The notes beneath the pieces are model-generated. The model saw nothing but the letters and a program-made list of their open reading frames with translations. It did no database searches and was not told where the DNA came from. Below are positions 12,867 through 24,059 of a stretch of DNA of 43,233 bases, piece after piece (position 1 is the stretch's first letter; every line of letters starts with the position of its first letter). Origin of the DNA: an uncultured Nitrososphaeraceae archaeon (GTDB taxonomy: Archaea; Thermoproteota; Nitrososphaeria; Nitrososphaerales; Nitrososphaeraceae); assembly GCA_963765895.1 (NCBI GenBank), contig CAVXZB010000001.1, positions 1 through 43,233 on the forward strand. Reading direction: 5' to 3'. The position numbers and the translations under genes were made by a program.

Positions 12867-14392
12867 TCAAGTCACACATTTTTCCGTATCTGGGTTAAAT
12901 GTTGTGTTTATAGGACATTCAGCTATGACCATGCCATCATGATATATTACCTGATTACTTTTAATATCTTTATTTCTATACAGACCTTCTTTTAGATATA
13001 CCATCTTATCATCAGTAGGTGCGGTTGTAAGATTATTTAAGGTGTTACCATGATATGGTTGAATCACGCTGGTACTTCCATTGATTTGCTTTATCCTTCC
13101 TTCCACTAACCCATCGCTTTTTGTGGACCATTTTATATGCACGAGAACATCATACCATATTCCTTGCTTTAGTGGTTCACTCCATCGATATCCACAGTTA
13201 GGAGGTGTTGTGTTAAAGCAGCCAATGCTATCATAATAGTGACTCATAACGCGAAGACTTAGTATATTTTTATTTAGATCGAATTCTACAGGAACCCCAT
13301 AAGTAAATGTTCCCTGGTTTCCAGTATGCCATTGTGTCCACACGTGCCAAGGCGAAGTAACGCTTGAACCAGGTAATTCGAAGCTGGGTGAAAACATTGT
13401 ATACCAATGGTACCACTGATTGCTTCCATCGTTAAACATATGTACATGTCCCGGGGAATCACAATATTTTAGCTCAGCTCGCACGCCGTTTGTTCCAGGA
13501 ATTGTTATTGCATTCTTTGTAAGTGTGACCTGAAGAGAATATTTACTAATACCTGGAGGATAAGTATTAGAACTTACTACATCTAAACGATTAGTTGGAT
13601 CGCTATACTCTGCGCAATTATTTTGACTAGTCGGCACTTTTGGGCCTTTAGTCCACTGACTTAGATCTCCGGTTTCGAAGTCTAGGCGTGTAAGTGATGT
13701 GGGATTGGAACCTACAGGAGAAGAAGAAGTACTATTCCATCCTGACCATGAACCATTACATCCAGCTGTTGCAGTAAAATAGTTATACCATATATTGTTA
13801 TCAGAGCCTCGAGCAAAAACATGCAAATCTTTAGAATTCCATGAAGTAACAGTCGGAGACGAAGTTATGTTAATATTTTTCGGATGGCCTACTTCTCCAG
13901 CATTACCCACATGAGTCCATGGCTCCCAATCCGTAGCACCTCCATTTGGATTGCAAAGTCGCCAAATGCCTTTATCAGATCCTGTTGCAAAAACATCTAA
14001 TGTCTTATTATTGATATCCCTTGAAATGGCTGCTGGCGACGATGTTATAAGTACGTTCTGAGGATGACCTGAAGCTCCTGGATTACCGGTAGACGTCCAA
14101 TTATGCCACATCGCCTGCGGATCCGTGGTATTTCTAAAATAGGGATTATTATAAACTGAACCATCAGAACCTAATACAAAAGCATTAAGATGGCCTGGTC
14201 CCCAATTAGACACGGAAGGTGGAGAAGAATTGCTACCTGGAGTAACAGCTGATATCGTGTGATAACTTGAACTAGCGCAAAGATGATAAGGGTCAATAAC
14301 GGCACTGATAATGCTAATAATAGGTTTCTATAATTAGAAGATAACTCAAAAATAAATCTATTCTTGGATAAAGACGCCACTTTTGTCTGCAT
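12867..14392 (-). CDS. Secreted protein: Trp-rich lectin-like beta-propeller blades plus C-terminal polysaccharide-lyase-like domain (frameshift near 14240)
   Basis: Signal-like segment in 14171..14392. Three repeats of S.P...S.....L.VFa.GSD..IW...W..W (fucose-lectin-like blades). Then DFETGDLSQW...RAELKY...WYHW...QWH...WYDVLVHIKWS..DG.VE...YLKEGLYR...IYHD (Polysacc_lyase-like jelly roll). Confidence 0.75.
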
Positions 14393-15076
14393 ATTAGTGT
14401 TTTAAGCTATAAAGGCATATCGGTGACAAACTCTTATACTTTTCCCTTATGTGGATATTATTAAGATGGAAATTCAGTCTTGACTAGACGGGTATTTCTA
14501 GGGACATATCAACTTGCCATCTAAAAATGGGTAGGAGAAAAATGCAGGTCAGAAATAAATAAAGGATTGCGGGTATTTAATAGAGGATGTCGAATAGGAT
14601 CGAGCTTACTGAATTCGGTCATTCTTCAAAAAGACAAATTTGACATACTCCAATGAGTCTAATGAAGCAGGTGTAGTGTAGTCTATCATATAAAATAGCG
14701 TAATTTATAGTCAAAATATAGCTCCCTGAATCTCAGCCACAATAGTAATTAAAAACCTGCATCGTCCTACATGTATTTCTTCTATTCCAACAATCTTGAT
14801 TTCGCATTGGCTCTGTCTGAGGCAATATTCGGTGCCATACTGCTAAGAATATGAGTGCTGAATAACCCTAAGCAAGTGACTACTAATTTTCTAATCGTTT
14901 CTGTTCAATTTCATGATCTTTTGTTCTTTATATTCTACAATACCAGAATGAAAATCGCTGTTTGATGCATCTTGCTCTGGGGCTAACAGAGTAACAACCT
15001 TCTACGTCTGTCTTCGATTTTGAACTTTATGTTACCGAGATCGAAAATATTTATCGATTTAGGAAAATAGAAGGTA

Positions 15077-15186
15077 CATCCTACTAATTCATAATACGTA
15101 TCACCTTGATATTTCAAATATTCAATTTTAGTAGTCTATAGTTTTGTATAATAAGCGTGAATAAATTGTCTGATCTCTAAATTAGT
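15077..15186 (+). repeat. Dispersed repeat copy B (left half); includes the left 75-bp direct repeat 15112-15186
   Basis: catcctactaattcataatacgtatcaccttgata followed by 75 bp identical to 27251-27325. Confidence 0.95.
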
Positions 15187-15231
15187 ATATTTATTATCCT
15201 TGAAATGCCTGTAGCTGTTTAGTCTTTCGCA

Positions 15232-15570
15232 AAAATGTAATTGTGCTATTGTATACTATGTATAATGAGCATGACTAACATGTCTAATTTCTAAATTAGT
15301 CTATTTGCGTATTTTAACAAACGATGAGAAGAAATAAGAAGGAGTTTGTTCCTGACTCCAATACTGGATACAGGATTGTTACTCCTATGTGATGAATGTG
15401 ATATATGTGATCCAGATTCATTATTCAAAGTATTGTCATAGATATCGTTGAAGTTGTTTTTGTTATGTGAAGTATTATTTTCTGTTTCATCACATACATC
15501 ACATACATCACATTGCGCTTTTCAGTTATCATCGTTAGTCCATGTGAGTACAAAGATTTCTCACTAACCT
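15232..15570 (+). repeat. Repeat sub-unit plus iteron arrays plus degenerate MCM 3' end (homologous to 38953-39140 and 39460-39610)
   Basis: 15232-15411 aligns to 38953-39134. The minus strand of 15470-15570 reads KVSEKS./VLTW...QCDVCDVCDETENNT, compared with MCM IVSEKPIVLKW...TCAACDICDEVNNT. Confidence 0.85.
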
Positions 15571-15671
15571 TCATAAAGATCCTTAGTTATAGTTTGAAAA
15601 AGAATGATATTTTCTAGGGATTTTTTGGGCATACAGGTATAAACATGGAACGTTACCCGATAATTGTAGTC

Positions 15672-15977
15672 CTACTGCATAGGTTTTGGCTTTAACATAA
15701 CTCTCATTCCACCCTCACCTTTAGCACTAACTACAAGTTTCAGTGCCCCTCCAGTTTCCATCATACCACTAATCCATAATTCAATAGATTCTACATGATA
15801 CTGTTTGAACCAATCAGCTATTGATTCCATACTTGTTGACAGGTGTTTTATTATCTCGCCACTACCGCCTTTTGAAATGTACTCATCATCTTCCTCTTGT
15901 TCATATTTTGGAAATGCTAGTTCTATCTTACCATTGTTTCTATTGCTATCGTCCTTATTGTCTATAGGATCTTCCAT
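15672..15977 (-). CDS. Small peptidase-co-occurring (Pepco/Trypco-like) protein
   Basis: 101 aa, acidic N-terminus, then YHVESIELWISGMMETGGALKLVVSAKGEGGMRVMLKP (Gly-rich alternating beta-strand pattern). Divergent from the caspase-like gene. Confidence 0.55.
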   Translation of the reverse strand: MEDPIDNKDDSNRNNGKIELAFPKYEQEEDDEYISKGGSGEIIKHLSTSMESIADWFKQYHVESIELWISGMMETGGALKLVVSAKGEGGMRVMLKPKPMQ

Positions 15978-16232
15978 AATTTTTAATCACGGACTAATTA
16001 TTTATAATTAAATTTGTTTGTCAATCTTATGATTATTAACAACTATTATGTTGGCAAAATAATTTTTCCGTATCATATGTTCAAATTGCTGCTGAAAAGC
16101 AGAGTATATTCTTATTTATTAATACCACATATTAAGAAGATTTAAATAATTACTTCGATTTACGGTAAATTATTGATTGAATTTGCTATGTCTATTTAAT
16201 GAAATAAAATTCAATGACAGTGAATGGGGGCT

Positions 16233-19200
16233 ATGACACTGCCAGAGGGCTCGGCTACTCCATCAGATCCCAAAGGTGATGACAATGTAACCTAAGATTG
16301 AGGCAAGTAAAGGGGTAGAACTAGCAACAACCGGAGACACCGCCGTAGGCGAGGGAAATAAAAAAGCATTGATAGTAAGTATTAGCTCTTATAAACATCT
16401 CCAACGTTTGGACTTTTGCCAAAAAGATGGCGAAGGAATGTGTCAACTTTTAGAAGCATTAGGTTATGAGATTCGGGGAAGATAATAGGCTGATAGGTGA
16501 AGTCACATATCAGAAACTAAAGAAAGCAATAATAGAGTTCTTTACAGGTAAGAATGTTAAATCTAAAGACACTTTACTCTTTTATTATTCTGGCCATGGC
16601 ATACCAGATGCATATGGAGATACCTATATTGCAACATCTGAGATAGATCCAGATGCTGTATATGATAGTGGTTATTCCTTCCACGATCTTACAAAGATGA
16701 TGAATATAAGTAAATCTAAAAGAATAGTTACAATCTTAGACTGTTGTTGTAGCGGAGCAGCTGGCATCACCAAAGGCAATGAGAATCAGGCTGGAGATTT
16801 AGCCAGAAATGCTATGGACATTAAGTCAAAAACTCTTGCCGAAGGAGAGGGCAAATGCGTTTTGGTTTAAGCCTTGCTACTCAAGTAGCCTATGGGAAAA
16901 AGGAAAACGATCACAGTGTATTTACCTACCATTTGATGGAAGGTCTAAGAGGAGCATCTATCGACAGAGAAGGGACTGTTACACCTCATTCTTTGGGTGA
17001 ATATGTATATGACAAAGTCACAGCAGCAGTAAAACAAAAACCTGTAATAAAGACTGAGGCATCAGGGAAAATTATACTTGCAGACTATCGAGGCTTGACA
17101 GCAAGGTCTTTACAATCTGAGTCAGATTCAGTCAAAGTGGATATTTCTTCGATTGTAGATGAAGGCAATCAGTGCGCTGAAAACTTTGACTATGAAAATG
17201 CCATTAGACTATATGATAGGGCAATAGTTCTAAATCCAAGAGATCATCATACTTATAATCATAAGGGCAAACTCCTTTTCTCACGGGGAAAATATGAAGA
17301 AGCTATCAAAGCATATGATGGAGCGATAGCTGCGAATTCTAAACATAGAGTTGCATATAATGGTAAAGGAGATGCACTGTTCGAGCTATCAATTTACAAA
17401 GAAGCTATTGAAAGCTACGATAAAGCCTTGGAGATTTATCCCAACTATTTTGAAGTACTAAGAGACAAGGGTTTGGCTCTCGACAGATTAGAAAGGTACA
17501 GAAGAAGCCATACAATACTATGATAAAGCCCTGAAGATAAATCCAAAAGATGATGAGGCTCCAAGGTATAAGGATAAGACAATTGATAAGTATGTAAAAT
17601 CTGAAAAAAATAAAGGTATTTCCTTTTACAAATATCTGCAAAGGTACAAGGAGGCTATAGAATGTTTAGATATTTCATTAAGTTATAACCCGCAAGATTC
17701 ACAAGTGTGTTATTATAAAGGCTTAGCATTTACTCGATTATCAAAATACGAAGACGCTATGCAATGTTATAATAAAGCATTAGAGATTGAACCTAAGAAT
17801 GTTGAAGCACTCATTGAGATGGGTAATTCTCTTAAAAGCTTGGATAGGTATGAAGAATCTATCAAGTACTATGATGAAGCCCTAAAAATAGATTCTAAAA
17901 AGATTAATGTGTGGATGGAAATTGGTAATTCAAGATCTTCGCTCAAGGATTATAAAGAGGCTATCATATGTTATAATAAAGTCCTAAAGATTGAACCTGA
18001 AAATGTTGAAGCACTTCTTAAGAATGGCGAAGCTCTTGTCAATTTAGAGAATTATGCAGATGCAGAAAAGATCTTTGATAAGGTTTTGAAATTACAACCA
18101 AAAAGTAAATATGCATTACACAGTAGAGGTCTATCACGTTTAAGACAGAGCAAATATGAACAAGCCAGAGCAGACTTTGATAAGGTCCTTGAATTCGAAC
18201 CTGATAATGTAGATGCAGTGATCAACAAAGGGGTTGCTCAATATAATCTAGCCGAATATGATGAGGCTATCGAGTGCTATGATAAAGCAATTGGGATTAA
18301 ACCGAAATCCACTCGGGCTATTATTTTGAAGGGTATATCTTTAGATAAAAAACGAAACTACGATCACGCTATTCAATGTTATGATGATGCGCTAGAATTA
18401 GAACCTGATAATGTAGATGCGTTATTTAACAAAGGTATAGATCTCTTTAATTTAAAAGAGTATCAGAAAGCCATAGACTGTTATGATAAAGTAAGTGAGA
18501 TAGAACCGAAAAATGCAGAGGCATTACATAATAAGGGGGATGCTCTTTACAACCTGGCCAAATATGATGAAGCTATTAGATGCTATGACAAGGTAATTGA
18601 AATAGAACCGAAAAATGCAGAGGCATGGAAGAGCAAGGCGCATGTATTGATTAAGACTGGTAACAGCGAAGTAGCATTACTAGCCATCGAGAAATCATTG
18701 GAGCTTGGACCGAATAATGGTGCAGGATTATATGATAATGGATCGATACTTAATAGCTTAGGAAGGTACCAAGAAGCGGTTGCTTCATTCAACAAGGTTT
18801 TGGAATTAGAACCGAACAACATTGCTACTTTGACTGAGAGAGGTATTGCCCTCAACAAGCTAAGCAGATTTGAAGAAGCCTTATCTGCTCTTGATAAGGT
18901 TTTGGAATTAGAACCGAACAACATTGCTGCTTTGACTGAGAGAGGTATTGCCCTCAACAAGCTAAGCAGATTTGAAGAAGCCTTATCTGCTCTTGATAAG
19001 GTTTTGGAATTAGAACCGAACAACATTGCTGCTTTGACTGAGAGAGGTATTGCCCTCAACAAGCTAAGCAGATTTGAAGAAGCCTTATCTGCTCTTGATA
19101 AGGTTTTGGAATTAGAACCGAACAACATTGCTGTACTAACAGATAGGGGTATTGCATTTATTGGTCTGCAAAAATTTGATGAGGGCATCAAGAGTCTTGC

Positions 19201-20041
19201 GAAGGCACTATTGGTTGATCCCAATAATATGTATGTACTTCGGGAAATCGGCTATGTATATGAATTAAAAAGTTCTAGTAGCAAAAAACTCCAATTAGCA
19301 ATTCAACCAACAATTGAGATAGATACTTCGTTCAGTAGTAAAGATTCCGACGTCCCAGATATTCCTTCAATTATGGATCAGGCAGTATGGTGCATTAAAA
19401 ACGAAGACTATGAAAACGCGATAGGGTGGTTTGAAAAGGCTATCGCTCTTAATCCGACTGATTCTCGTCCGTATAATAGCAAGGGCGATCTCCTTTTCAG
19501 GTTGTCCAGATATGAAGAAGCCATCAAGGCATATGACGCTGTAATAGCAATTGATCCAGAGAATTACACGTCATACAATAGAAAAGGTGATGCTCTTTTC
19601 AAGTTGTCCTTGTATACCGAAGCCATTGAATGTTATAATATAGTACTAGCGATCGACCCTGATAATGTAAATGCATTGACTAATAAAGGAAATGCTCTTG
19701 ATTACTTGGCCAATTATGAGGAAGCAGTCGAGTGTTATGATAAAGTTTTAAAGATACAGATAGATAATGAAATGGTTTTACGGAGCAAGAGAAAGTCACT
19801 TAGGAAAAAAGCCGTAAGAGATGTTAAAAGTCTTGCGACAAATGATACTTCAGAAATTCCACAGAGTACTGAAGATAGGCAAATATTGGATTCCTCTGAC
19901 ACTCCTGATGGTTACACTGATCAAACTAAATCCTCAATTTGGGACCAGAGCCGTGACAGCTTATCATTTTTTAAAAGGAAGAAGAAACAGCAGACAGCAA
20001 ACTGGGTAGCACATCCCACTAGGGGAAGAGGATATGAATAA
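16233..20041 (+). CDS. Caspase-family (peptidase C14, metacaspase-like) protease fused to a long TPR array; about 4 frameshifts
   Basis: KKALIVSISSY...LDFCQKDG (16321 frame), LLFYYSGHG (catalytic His), TILDCCCSGAA (catalytic Cys), HSVFTYHLMEGLRG, QKPVIKTE, then more than 20 TPR motifs. Breaks near 16290, 16473, 16865 and 17499. Start is tentative. Confidence 0.85.
18794..19133 (+). repeat. 102-bp tandem repeat x3.3 (near-identical TPR units)
   Basis: aaggttttggaattagaaccgaacaacattgct recurs at 18794, 18896, 18998 and 19100. Confidence 0.95.
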
Positions 20042-20139
20042 ACAATGAGGTTTAGACAATAATTCGTGGAGATTTTGAAATGTGGCTAAAAATATGAGCC
20101 ATATTTTTATTATGAACAAGATACCGTTCAGAGGACTAA

Positions 20140-21087
20140 GACCCTATCCGAAAAGTAGTTGATTTTAATTGAGTTATATGCAAACTGCCTTTAATCGATA
20201 AAGCTAAGCTGTACTGCACTTTCTTTTGAGATATATATTGATATCAGAGAATACAGGAGTTGATTTCTCCTACTCCGTACCTGACGTTATATGGGATAGG
20301 ATCATCACATTGCTTCCGTCACCGTCAATACTTAGGAGGAAGAAAAAGAAGACTGGTCGTCCAAGAATGGATGATAGGAAGGCTATGAGTGCTATATTCT
20401 ACATCCTACGTACAGGCTGTCAGTGGAATGCTCTACCGAGAAGTCTTGGTGCTTCTAGTACCTGTACATGATAGATTCCAGGAGTGGAGGAAAGCAGGTG
20501 TATTCAGGCATATGTGGATGGATGGATTGTCAGTCTACGATAGAACTAATAGAATAGACTGGAAATGGCAGGCTATTGATGGCGTTATTACAAAGGCACC
20601 TCTTGGGGGAAAAAAGCACAGGACCAAATCCCACAGACAGAAGTAAATAAGGTACTAAACGTAGTATTCTAGTAGATGGTAAAGGAATACCACTTGGTGT
20701 ATCTGTAGATGGAGCTAACAGACATGACATGAAGATGACCAAAGCAACACTGCAAAGCATAGTCATCTATAGACCTGAACCAACAATCAGATTAAAGCAG
20801 CACATGTGCCTTGACAAGGGTTACGACTTTCCAGAAGTATACGAATTGCTGGAAGAGTATGGATATACAATTCATATCCCATTAAGAGGAGAGAAAAGAA
20901 GAAGGCAGCAAAGTGATACCTGGATACAGAGCTAGACATTGGGTTGTTGAAAGAACTCACTCTTGGATGAACAGGTTTAGACGGTTGTTAATTAGATGGG
21001 AGAAAAAGGTAGAGAATCATATTGTATTGTTGCATTATGCTTGTACTTGGATCACTTACAGAAGAGCAAGAGTTTTCGGATAGGTTC
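20140..21087 (+). mobile_element. IS5-family insertion sequence, 948 bp, TAA target duplication; transposase disrupted
   Basis: TIRs GACCCTATCCGAAAA / TTTTCGGATAGGTTC, flanked by TAA at 20137-20139 and 21088-21090. Transposase motifs GRPRMDDRKAM..IFYILRTGCQW..LP, AIDG, LDKGYD and RHWVVERTHSWMNRFRRLLIRWEK. There is an in-frame stop (DRSK*GTKRS) and extra frameshifts. Confidence 0.95.
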
Positions 21088-21475
21088 TAAGATAGCTAGT
21101 CAAGTGTTGGCTGGCAATTATCTGCTCCCTACTGGGAACAAAATTGAATAAAAATCCATAAGGCTTTGTCTACTGTATTGGAATCAGGATCAATACCTTA
21201 TATTATTTATGAATAGCCTAATTTAGAAATAAGATGATTTATTCACGCTCATTATACCAGATTATACCAGACTATACCATACTATACCATACTAAAATTG
21301 AATATTTGAAATGTCAAGGTGAGACGTATTATGAGTGTAGGATGAAGCATAATTCTTTATTCTAACCTATTGTCTAGATATTACTGATTTCCAATTGAGG
21401 TATATTCAAATCTCAAATACCCTATATCTGTCGTTTATTCAAAAAGGAAAGAAAAACAATCCGAATTTGAGAGTC
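21088..21475 (-). repeat. Dispersed repeat copy C (inverted), interrupted by the IS5 element
   Basis: The reverse complement aligns to 38480-38815, with the core at 21291-21311. 21423-21473 also matches about 38217-38268. A 10-bp tandem tatacca(g/t)a(t/c) x4 lies at 21253-21292. Confidence 0.9.
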
Positions 21476-22230
21476 ATCTAGAAAGCGCACATATGGTATC
21501 TACAGACGTTCTAGTTAACCACTTTGCTTTTGTCGAGTCGTTATTGTTTAAGAGGACTACTGACACTAATGAAAAGACTGCATAGGTATAAAATAACTGA
21601 AAAAGGTGTCATCAGTTACTCCGAAATAGTAACGTATTAATACCAGTTCTCATAATACGTAGTAGTAGAATAACAGGTGGTATAAGAGATATGTTGCAAA
21701 TATTCGTAGACAAACCCGACAGAAATAATGCGATTATTTCTGGGAGACAAGTTCCAATCTATTGATGGTATCGCGTCCATCATGTGGTAATAAAGTGAAA
21801 CAGAGGAGATTCTAAGGAGATAGAAATGACTTCATTAGATTTAGAGGGAATAACGAGGTAATAGACAAATGGGCATTTTTCAAAAAAGACTCTATGAAAA
21901 TGACAAAATGTCTAAGTATTTTAGAGATGTAATTTCAAAATTTACAAACGAAGATAAAGAGCAAGCAACACGATTGGCCTGTATTATTGAGAATAAAGAT
22001 AGCCAACGAAGGGTTATACATATGAGGGTATAGCAAATGAACTATTTGGATATGACTGTATCGAAGTGTTAGAAAACGAAGAACTTGGAAATAAAGCCAG
22101 ATGTCATAGTTAGTACAACATCTAAATATCAATTATCTCTCAAATTCTCTTCTATTGAGGCCGACAGGTTCAACATGAATATCCAAATAGGGTCACTTCA
22201 CATATAATGATTTTAACATTTGTCACATCA

Positions 22231-23232
22231 TTAGTTGTGTTTTGTGTTTTTCGAGGAATTACTTCTTGTGTTTTTCAGTTTTTCTATTTTGTCAAAACAT
22301 ATTTTTGCTTCCATATATCGACCAAGTTTTTCGAGGTCTATTCCTTTATTATTCAAAGCATTGACATTGTTAGGATCTATTTCTAAAGATTTATCATAGT
22401 ATTGTAAAGCCTCAAGAGTTCTCCCTGCTTTATCTATGCATAAGCCTTTGTTTTCCCATGCATAGGCGTCGTTAGGATCTATTTTCAAAACTTGGTCAAA
22501 ACATTTTACCGCATCTTCATACCTTCCTATAGCGCCAAGAGCGTTACCTTTGTAATACCATGCCTCTGCATATTTATTATCAATCTTTACTGCCTCATCA
22601 AAAAACTCTATAGCTTCATCATATTTTGCTTGATTACTAAGAGCCAAACCTGTCTCTTTATATGCTAAAGCACGATTTGGATCATTTTTTACAGCCTCAT
22701 GAAAAGCCTTCATAAGTTCATCATGTCTTCCTAACATACGAAGAGTCACACCCTTCTTTTCCCATGCTGCTTTATACTTAGGATCTAGCTCTATGACTTT
22801 ATCAAAGCACACTAACGCTTGTTCATATCTTCCTATTTGACCAAGAACCTCACCTTTGTTGTACCATACTGCTTTATACTTAGGATCTAGCTCTATGACT
22901 TTATCAAAGCACACTAACGCTTGTTCATATCTTTCTAGCTTGAAAAGAGATGTACCTTTGTTAAGCCATGCATCAGCAAAATATGGATTTAGCTCTTTGC
23001 CTTTATCAAAAAACTCTATAACTTCATCATATTTTGCTTGATACAAAAGAGCCAATCCTATGTTATTGTATACTCTTGTGTAATTTGGATATATTTCCAA
23101 AGCTTTCTCAAAACACTTTATAGCTTCATCATATTTGCGTAATTGACCAAGAGCTGTTCCTTTGTTATACCATAGCATTGCATTCTCCGGAATATGTCCA
23201 CTACGATCCAATTTTACTATATGAATAAACAC
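22231..23232 (-). CDS. Tetratricopeptide-repeat protein (about 9 TPRs, no catalytic domain)
   Basis: Repeated W.NKG..L..LGRYE.A..CFDK.LE.DP motifs, with an internal about 63-bp duplication spaced 102 bp apart (22768/22870). Start uncertain. Confidence 0.9.
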   Translation of the reverse strand: MFIHIVKLDRSGHIPENAMLWYNKGTALGQLRKYDEAIKCFEKALEIYPNYTRVYNNIGLALLYQAKYDEVIEFFDKGKELNPYFADAWLNKGTSLFKLERYEQALVCFDKVIELDPKYKAVWYNKGEVLGQIGRYEQALVCFDKVIELDPKYKAAWEKKGVTLRMLGRHDELMKAFHEAVKNDPNRALAYKETGLALSNQAKYDEAIEFFDEAVKIDNKYAEAWYYKGNALGAIGRYEDAVKCFDQVLKIDPNDAYAWENKGLCIDKAGRTLEALQYYDKSLEIDPNNVNALNNKGIDLEKLGRYMEAKICFDKIEKLKNTRSNSSKNTKHN

Positions 23233-23300
23233 TTAATGTTATAAACATATACTATCAGCAAATGTTTATTATCATGAAATATTTATATTATCACCATACT

Positions 23301-24059
23301 GTGAGTATTAGCAAGCAATATATTAAAGAAATTAAGGACCAACTGGGCTACTCTGCAGTGTGGCTTCCCACGATAAATGTACGTCCTGGAGATGTAGGTA
23401 TGATTACAAACTACGAATATAGACCTGTTACTAATTTGTCAGCGTTAGGTATACCTTTTGAAATAGAGAAAGGAAATGTACAAGCTGAGTGTGATTACTC
23501 TTCACGCAACGCAGTTTCAGTTTCTATCAAGGCCGCAGGACAAATCCCATCACCTGGTTCAGCGCTTCTTCAAGGAGATGCAGGTATAAATGTAAAATTT
23601 GCAAAAAATAATGCAGTTCTATTTCGCTTATCTAGATGTAGTTCTACTGTTATAAAAAACCAAAACAGGTTAAAGGAACAGGTTCTAGATAGAAACAGAT
23701 CGCATAAATGGGATAAAAAATGGGTAGTAGTGATTGAAGCTGTAACCGCGGCAATGGCAACCATTATTACATCTCATGGAGATAACGCACAAATTGATTT
23801 AAAAGTTCAAGGTAATATAGGACAAGCTGAACTGGGTTTAATTAGTCTTGATGCAGGTTTTCAAATACTACAAGAATCAGATATTGCAATGAAAATTATC
23901 GCTTCAAAAAATCTCAGTCCTTTATTCAAAACCTCTACAGTACGAAAACCCTTCCTCCTATTCGGAGATGAGGACTTTATGGGCCCTCCTGAAAATGAAG
24001 TTGAATTTGGAACAGTAGATTATGAAGACTTCGAAGCTAAGATAGATGTTTTAATGTAA
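23301..24059 (+). CDS. Gasdermin-like pore-forming protein (about 252 aa)
   Basis: N-terminal helix then LGYSAVWLPTINVRPGDVG (compare prokaryotic/fungal gasdermin 'G...+..P.....PGD+'). Two amphipathic beta-hairpin regions, WVVVIEAVTA (compare 'fVVTeV..A'), LSPLFK, and a short acidic C-terminal tail. Convergent with the CHAT protease. GTG start at 23301 preferred; ATG 23262 possible. Confidence 0.7.
   Translation: MSISKQYIKEIKDQLGYSAVWLPTINVRPGDVGMITNYEYRPVTNLSALGIPFEIEKGNVQAECDYSSRNAVSVSIKAAGQIPSPGSALLQGDAGINVKFAKNNAVLFRLSRCSSTVIKNQNRLKEQVLDRNRSHKWDKKWVVVIEAVTAAMATIITSHGDNAQIDLKVQGNIGQAELGLISLDAGFQILQESDIAMKIIASKNLSPLFKTSTVRKPFLLFGDEDFMGPPENEVEFGTVDYEDFEAKIDVLM

Follow-up and report, generated by a model that had tools for sequence, protein, structure and literature searches.

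A small conserved gene linked to caspases in soil Nitrososphaeraceae: a candidate archaeal protease-effector module

Introduction

The locus described here raises the question of what a gene for a protein of 101 amino acids (aa) does beside a caspase gene in an archaeon of the family Nitrososphaeraceae. Both genes lie on a stretch of 43,233 nucleotides with a G+C content of approx. 35% (the window), i.e. positions 1 to 43,233 of contig CAVXZB010000001.1 (assembly GCA_963765895.1, uncultured Nitrososphaeraceae archaeon). The small gene is transcribed away from a gene in which a caspase domain is followed by a long array of tetratricopeptide repeats (TPR). Members of the Nitrososphaeraceae are the main ammonia oxidisers of many soils and, to our knowledge, their defence against viruses has been little described. 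Modules that pair a protease with a small pro-effector have been described in bacteria, and a 2025 preprint showed the workings of four of them (bioRxiv 10.1101/2025.11.14.688446). Our search of the papers available to us found no account of such modules in ammonia-oxidising archaea.

We propose, with moderate confidence, that the small gene and the caspase-TPR gene make up a conflict module of two genes, a protease and its effector, which recurs in soil Nitrososphaeraceae with a patchy distribution. A first-pass annotation of the window had suggested that a protease with a sensor acts on a small effector, and by analogy with characterised systems this logic would remain the best fit to the data presented below. 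We read the pair as a divergent archaeal variant of the protease and small pro-effector modules, with EACC1-caspase pairs closest in layout and Pepco/Trypco1 closest in the small protein. The archaeal caspase-linked variant is new and is not captured by Pfam, NCBIfam or PADLOC models. The features of the two genes are as follows.

15672-15977, minus strand: small 101-aa gene, intact, the 'constant' partner (open reading frame and conservation)
15978-16223, no strand: divergent intergenic spacer of approx. 246 bp, from the small gene to the caspase ATG at 16224 (sequence)
16224-17150, plus strand: C14 caspase domain, spread over three frames (SGHG and DCCCSG, Pfam, relatives)
17150-20041, plus strand: TPR array, presumed sensor (Pfam TPR_1, at least 19 stretches)
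18794-19133, plus strand: one 34-aa TPR unit repeated in tandem and in frame, 3.3 copies of 102 bp at 99% identity (repeat analysis)

The small gene and its protein family

The 101-aa open reading frame (ORF) that the first-pass annotation had pointed out, divergent from the caspase gene and with a Gly-rich end, is indeed present at 15672-15977 on the minus strand. Its product ends in ...ETGGALKLVVSAKGEGGMRVMLKPKPMQ, a Gly-rich strand-turn-strand pattern, and the ORF is a real gene, conserved well beyond chance. A word-based search with the protein retrieved 358 proteins at E<=0.01, with identities of 67-85% among the top 120; all named relatives came from Nitrososphaeraceae, and none among the matches listed carried a Pfam domain. 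Exhaustive phmmer yielded 167 representative clusters at E<=0.001. The alignment A1 drawn from these clusters holds 91 diverse relatives, with the consensus L.FP ... FK.Y.VD.IELWI.G..ETGG.TKL.VSA.GEGG.KV.LKPK; a profile search with A1 gave close relatives only among the matches listed.

Residues 1-43 of the protein are acidic (net charge -8) and include a conserved IELAFPK strand. The AlphaFold2 monomer, of mediocre confidence (predicted local distance difference test, pLDDT, 65.9), begins with a strand at 17-22, from which a disordered low-confidence linker (29-43) leads to a helix (50-56); four strands then follow and end in the conserved GEGG...LKPK. The last conserved strand is only 3-5 residues from the end of the protein, and family members finish 0-5 residues past the conserved LKP(K/R). 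No transmembrane helix was found in the small protein, the top 19-residue Kyte-Doolittle mean being 1.05, with no hydrophobic stretch of ~20 residues. Prediction of a four-copy complex returned a median score of 0.33 against a mark of 0.42, which weighs neither way on oligomerisation, and a sequence-profile search of the PDB gave chance matches only (E ~3).

The distribution of the small gene across the Nitrososphaeraceae is patchy: it was present in 25 of 151 sampled genomes of the family, a count that takes in the unpublished genome G035. Sampling across the phylum found it in three of 401 genomes, and the sister family f2, with 56 genomes, had none.

The sole family member outside Nitrososphaeraceae in the phylum sample (locus L119, G174:C14) is situated downstream of two genes, one encoding an AAA_16-TPR (STAND-like) protein of 852 aa and the other of the radical SAM/SPASM type, and no protease was detected there by hidden Markov models (HMMs). 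At two other loci a 204-aa protein lacking a Pfam match is encoded within ~1 kb of small-gene copies (L004:11242-11856 and L045:4474-5088). In the window, the ~1.3 kb downstream of the small gene (14393-15671) contains no ORF of at least 60 aa and includes a 9-bp repeat, CATCACATA x 2.9, at 15488-15513. An Rfam search over 13500-22500 gave no match.

Linkage of the small gene with caspases

Metagenome loci carrying the small gene (49 in total) were fetched with a 22-sequence alignment and scanned with a caspase HMM built from the caspase sequences of this analysis. A caspase match was found on the same contig as the small gene in 30 of the 49. The caspase was co-directional and downstream in 19 (within ~534 bp in 18 of them), divergent, as in the window, in 10 and convergent in one. 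One locus scored as caspase-less (L069) ends in the NHL tail of a convergent caspase known from its near-duplicate L071, and 30 of 49 is thus a lower bound. Where at least 1 kb was available on both sides, a caspase was seen in 12 of 16 loci, the remaining four being partial small-gene matches only. Co-occurrence with proteases, on which the first-pass annotation had staked its proposal, was therefore found for the homologues, with caspases in the 30 metagenome loci and, at the genome locus L050, a divergent 1220-aa trypsin-STAND-pentapeptide protein in place of the caspase.

An N-terminal Peptidase_C14 domain was recognised in all 17 neighbouring caspase ORFs that were scanned, and their C-terminal regions vary: TPR, pentapeptide, NHL, Big_5, PKD, or nothing recognised. 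An intact pair is seen at L037, where an 86-aa small gene is followed, after a gap of 89 bp, by a gene for a 768-aa caspase-TPR protein. Two further genome loci have a caspase with Big_9 domains (L036) and a PRTase-CE protein (L049).

The genome to which the window belongs (4.9 Mb) has only three caspase loci, in the window, on contig 87 and on contig 75, and two of the three stand beside small-gene copies. The second module, on contig 87 (L004; G000:C87:60440-60745, 64238-64396 and 64493-66226), has an intact caspase-Big_9/cadherin gene of 578 aa. Immediately upstream of this caspase is a small-gene remnant that has decayed and contains an in-frame stop, and 3.7 kb upstream is an intact paralogue of the small gene, of 73% identity. 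The third caspase locus (G000:C75:7108-9601) runs over two frames and has no small-gene match near it.

In the window itself, both motifs named in the first-pass annotation, the His motif SGHG and the Cys motif DCCCSG, are retained, and the caspase belongs to Peptidase_C14, the 134-aa piece at 16466-16870 scoring 27.2 bits (Pfam cut-off 21.4). The nearest curated model to the fragment is NCBIfam NF047832 ('caspase, EACC1-associated type'), at 70.7 bits, under the cut-off of 140. Pfam TPR_1 recognised three stretches in the 222-aa piece at 16855-17523 and 16 in the 778-aa piece at 17705-20041, the longest unbroken piece, which finishes at the stop codon of the caspase-TPR gene. The 102-bp tandem repeat at 18794-19133 is a recent expansion of this presumed sensor array. 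Putative promoters would be located in the spacer at 15978-16223; spacers of 193-472 bp were seen in nine of the 10 divergent metagenome loci.

Proposed mode of action

The mechanism set out here is inferred by analogy with Pepco/Trypco1-protease and EACC1-caspase modules, while what was observed is gene linkage and domain architecture. According to Evans et al. (bioRxiv 10.1101/2025.11.14.688446), Pepco and Trypco1 are small peptidase-co-occurring pro-toxins, the characterised case being SsPepco with trypsin-Avs4. There, Pepco forms pre-assembled 9-10-mer beta-barrels that resist sodium dodecyl sulphate (SDS) and become toxic once the partner protease removes the C-terminal tail after Ile97; both the cleavage-dependent toxicity and the pre-assembled barrels were shown experimentally. 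The small family described here resembles Pepco (PF24393) and Trypco1 (PF19493) as a standalone protein of ~100 aa beside a Ser/Cys protease fused to variable sensors, and as a beta-rich protein with a Gly-rich turn and a C-terminal strand ending in ...V.LK.

By this analogy, the small protein is probably a protease-activated death effector. The repeat domain would sense an invader or a stress signal and switch the caspase on, and the active caspase would then cut the small protein; by this cut a protein that is latent, rich in beta strands and probably oligomeric may become a death effector that damages membranes. The Streptomyces Pepco is cut in a long C-terminal tail, which the family lacks; its members have an acidic strand and a linker in the N-terminal part and finish with the conserved LKP(K/R). 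The activating cut would therefore more likely fall in that linker, or else at the LKPK of the C-terminus.

A more far-reaching version is that the proteins constitute an archaeal family in its own right, of pro-toxins that form pores once activated by a caspase; any relationship to Pepco/Trypco1 would be very distant, and licensing would require removal of the acidic N-terminal pro-segment or a cut at LKPK instead of the loss of a long C-terminal tail. This we put forward tentatively, as a possibility open to considerable doubt. If it were true, soil ammonia-oxidising archaea would have a suicide immunity driven by caspases, in which TPR, pentapeptide, NHL or Ig-like sensors can be exchanged. 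In the module a small protein resembling Pepco/Trypco1 is combined with an EACC1-associated type of caspase, and the general mechanism, if true, would extend caspase-licensed cell death to a major archaeal lineage. The compact pair (~90 aa and ~700 aa) is also suited to biochemistry.

Evidence weighing on the reading, and alternatives

Several observations weigh against the reading as a conflict module with a pro-toxin, some of them touching the genes and others the protein. The metagenome loci are non-independent, with at least four near-duplicate pairs from related samples. The caspase-TPR gene of the window is itself split across frames under translation table 11, with four changes (~16289, 16472-16487, 16849-16860 and ~17500). 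Homologues of ~90-125 aa at 30-42% identity occupy conserved operons in the order MarR, small gene, SnoaL-like gene, unknown gene at eight loci (L041, L043, L044, L046, L048, L051, L052 and L120), in none of which a protease was detected, and two further homologues (L039, L040) adjoin CopD and RNA cyclase (RTC) genes. Given these contexts, proteases are no strict companion of the family as a whole; it is in the subfamily of the window protein (at least 45% identity) that the link with caspases holds.

As regards the protein, searches of Pfam, NCBIfam and PADLOC with that of the window gave no match at a threshold as permissive as E<=10, and Foldseek with its monomer model (pLDDT 65.9) found nothing in the PDB at E<=0.001. 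When the 91 relatives were compared singly with Pfam, seven matched Pepco, the best with E 0.0043 and 18.0 bits, below the cut-off of 27. With hhalign, the probabilities against genuine Trypco1 proteins were only low (7-21%), and a two-sequence Trypco1 template gave 0.6-1.7%; the family HMM did not match any of 12 genuine Trypco1 loci at E<=0.1. SsPepco also differs in a feature on which its activation depends: the small family lacks the ~20-residue charged/proline-rich C-terminal tail and the Ile at the tail junction (I97), and has an acidic N-terminal extension and linker instead.

Some other comparisons are suggestive of a distant relationship. Four of the 91 relatives matched Trypco1 (best E 0.0081, 17.2 bits, below the cut-off of 24.6), and all Pepco and Trypco1 matches placed the C-terminal block of the family in the same register, at the profile end. 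No Pfam family other than these two was matched by more than two of the 91; as a picture of the noise, an NCBIfam scan of the same relatives hit 29 families, each at most twice. Against the 12 genuine Trypco1 sequences (two genes on the Acaryochloris plasmid pREB7 and ten from Nitrososphaeraceae genomes), hhalign aligned A2 over 36 columns (probability 21%, E 0.001) and A1 over 34 columns (6.6%, E 0.0055), both in the C-terminal register, versus 0.3% and E 0.18 for an unrelated control. The nearest ESM-Atlas clusters bear Pepco or Trypco1 (scores 0.86-0.89), which serves as a lead only. A word-based search seeded with P0225, the relative nearest Pepco, gave five proteins, none annotated as Pepco, and tblastn of the window protein and P0225 against plasmids produced no useful match. 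Matches to the Pepco model over the cut-off were found neither in the 401 genomes of the phylum nor in 13 cyanobacterial and actinobacterial plasmid records.

The likeness to Pepco/Trypco in the first-pass annotation thus survives in part, as sub-threshold matches among the relatives (7/91 and 4/91), and not for the window protein, which has none. Judged from sequence comparison it is suggestive, being consistent but unproven; formally, the small protein reaches neither Pfam cut-off and the family is a member of neither. Genuine Trypco1 genes, over the Pfam cut-off, were present in 10 of the 151 Nitrososphaeraceae genomes (L132-L141) at loci separate from those of the small family. A trypsin-like ORF lies directly downstream in seven of the 10 and a caspase in none, whereas the partner of the small family is an archaeal C14 caspase; the Trypco1 loci are a module separate from the small family.

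The tight adjacency and the high conservation of the small protein would suit a binding partner as well as a substrate, and at L062, L065 and L074 it is more conserved than the adjoining caspase domain (67-73% vs 42-62% identity). It might accordingly serve the caspase as regulator, inhibitor, adaptor or chaperone, and the caspase would kill or signal by cutting other cellular proteins; the small partners of caspases listed by Evans et al. (bioRxiv 10.1101/2025.11.14.688446) include CATASP (CATRA-associated small protein), a 'caspase associated regulator component'. The signal from Pepco/Trypco1, which is weak but recurrent, favours the effector class instead, and no other effector gene recurs nearby, the only recurrent neighbour clusters of the small gene being caspase/TPR genes and the MarR/SnoaL set, so that we consider a regulatory role unlikely.

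The MarR/SnoaL operons and the two CopD/RTC contexts would be expected if the family had a housekeeping or stress role unrelated to defence, e.g. as a small beta-rich binding protein, of which the caspase-linked members were one regulated use. This appears improbable to us for the window protein: its subfamily is the caspase-linked one, the partners show the variable-sensor architecture typical of conflict systems, and the MarR-linked proteins have only a degraded form of the GEGG motif.

The layout of the pair is that of the EACC1-caspase system, in which, according to Kaur et al. (2020, eLife, PMC7159879), a 5' small constant gene is followed by a 3' caspase with variable C-terminal domains. 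The logic of a conserved small gene with a caspase of highly variable C-terminal region is the same, and the caspases of the small family are nearest to the NCBIfam EACC1-type caspase model: NF047832 was the best caspase model, aligned full length, in 10 of 10 partner caspases. It is nevertheless very improbable that we are dealing with a divergent form of EACC1, which is the constant component of that system and is inserted in the membrane. EACC1 is defined by a single conserved transmembrane helix with a small-residue patch; the hosts named by Kaur et al. are actinobacteria and, sporadically, proteobacteria (PMC7159879), and according to Evans et al. EACC1 forms pores after the caspase takes off an inhibitory domain (bioRxiv 10.1101/2025.11.14.688446). 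The small protein has no such helix (top 19-residue mean 1.05), the hosts are archaeal, and the partner caspases, at 101-124 bits, all fall below the NF047832 cut-off of 140 and are not members of it. Lastly, chance adjacency of an unrelated small gene is hardly credible with a caspase in 30 of 49 loci and small-gene copies beside two of the three caspase loci of a 4.9-Mb genome.

Frame changes in the caspase-TPR gene of the window

We return to the proposed conflict module as present in the window, where the first-pass annotation had reported a caspase fused to more than 20 TPRs. About 20 TPRs (at least 19 by TPR_1) are indeed there; a single fused gene is not, its frames being broken four times. 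The changes were placed by comparison with 11 intact relatives, namely the 768-aa caspase-TPR protein of L037 and ten other neighbouring caspases, and public soil-metagenome contigs were compared over 15600-17700 of the window.

16289, plus strand: frame change 1, in an AA run (one base, missing from a near-identical soil-metagenome contig)
16472, plus strand: frame change 2, in a GGGG run (one base, missing from the same soil-metagenome contig as at 16289)
16849-16870, plus strand: frame change 3, within the caspase domain beside a T run (comparison with relatives)
17490-17523 (~17500), plus strand: frame change 4, within the TPR array (comparison with relatives)

Over its 271 bases the soil-metagenome contig shows one substitution relative to the window and lacks two single bases, those at 16289 and 16472. 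Once both are removed, an open frame of 214 codons extends from the ATG at 16224 to the third site. The depth of the contig is low (3.2) and each gap singly could be an error; that both of them restore the frame is unlikely to be chance. Intact caspase alleles therefore exist in the environment, at two at least of the four frame-change sites. Over sites 3 and 4 no near-identical contig was found in public soil metagenomes, and none of the contigs compared spans site 4. Among the sequencing runs containing the region no RNA run was listed, and in the DNA runs found its share was small.

The window copy is either a decayed allele or locally mis-assembled. With its caspase frame interrupted four times, the module as assembled is predicted from its sequence to be inactive, and the broken frame makes the window copy a poor specimen of its kind. 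Frame breaks were also seen in two accessory genes of the same genome, in the CHAT-TPR gene and the insertion sequence (IS) element described below, and in a second caspase, on contig 75. Genome-wide assembly error as their general cause was unsupported: five of five long housekeeping-type orthologues (full-length match, at least 55% identity) are in a single frame.

The gasdermin-like gene and its surroundings

Beyond the caspase-TPR gene the window contains IS remnants and a second protease region, with the following features.

20226-21151, plus strand: IS5-family transposase remnants in several overlapping frames (DUF4096, E 9e-16)
22231-23232, minus strand: separate 333-aa TPR protein (ORF)
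23262-24059, plus strand: gasdermin-like 265-aa ORF (weak PADLOC bGSDM match, E 5.4e-4)
24162-24797, minus strand: CHAT protease piece (E 3e-41)
24824-25009, minus strand: further piece of the split TPR-CHAT gene (ORF)
25006-26685, minus strand: TPR piece of the TPR-CHAT gene (ORF and Pfam)

The TPR-CHAT gene beside the gasdermin-like ORF is split into at least three frames. AlphaFold2 modelled the gasdermin-like protein, from a three-sequence alignment, with a pLDDT of 35.4, too low for fold comparison. Release of a pore-former by a protease is an idea that bacterial gasdermins share with the mechanism proposed above for the small protein, although the small effector has no sequence likeness to gasdermin.

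The first-pass annotation had seen in the two protease-effector pairs parallel or cross-talking death pathways on one cassette, and this was not borne out. The gasdermin-like gene occurs in three of the 151 genomes of the family, the two other genomes that hold it had no match to the small protein, and CHAT had no match in any of the 49 metagenome loci of the small gene. IS remnants separate the caspase-TPR gene from the gasdermin-like region, and both protease genes are frame-broken. The gasdermin-like gene of the window belongs to a separate, rarer module, and the two pairs are independent modules co-located in one variable, IS-marked region.

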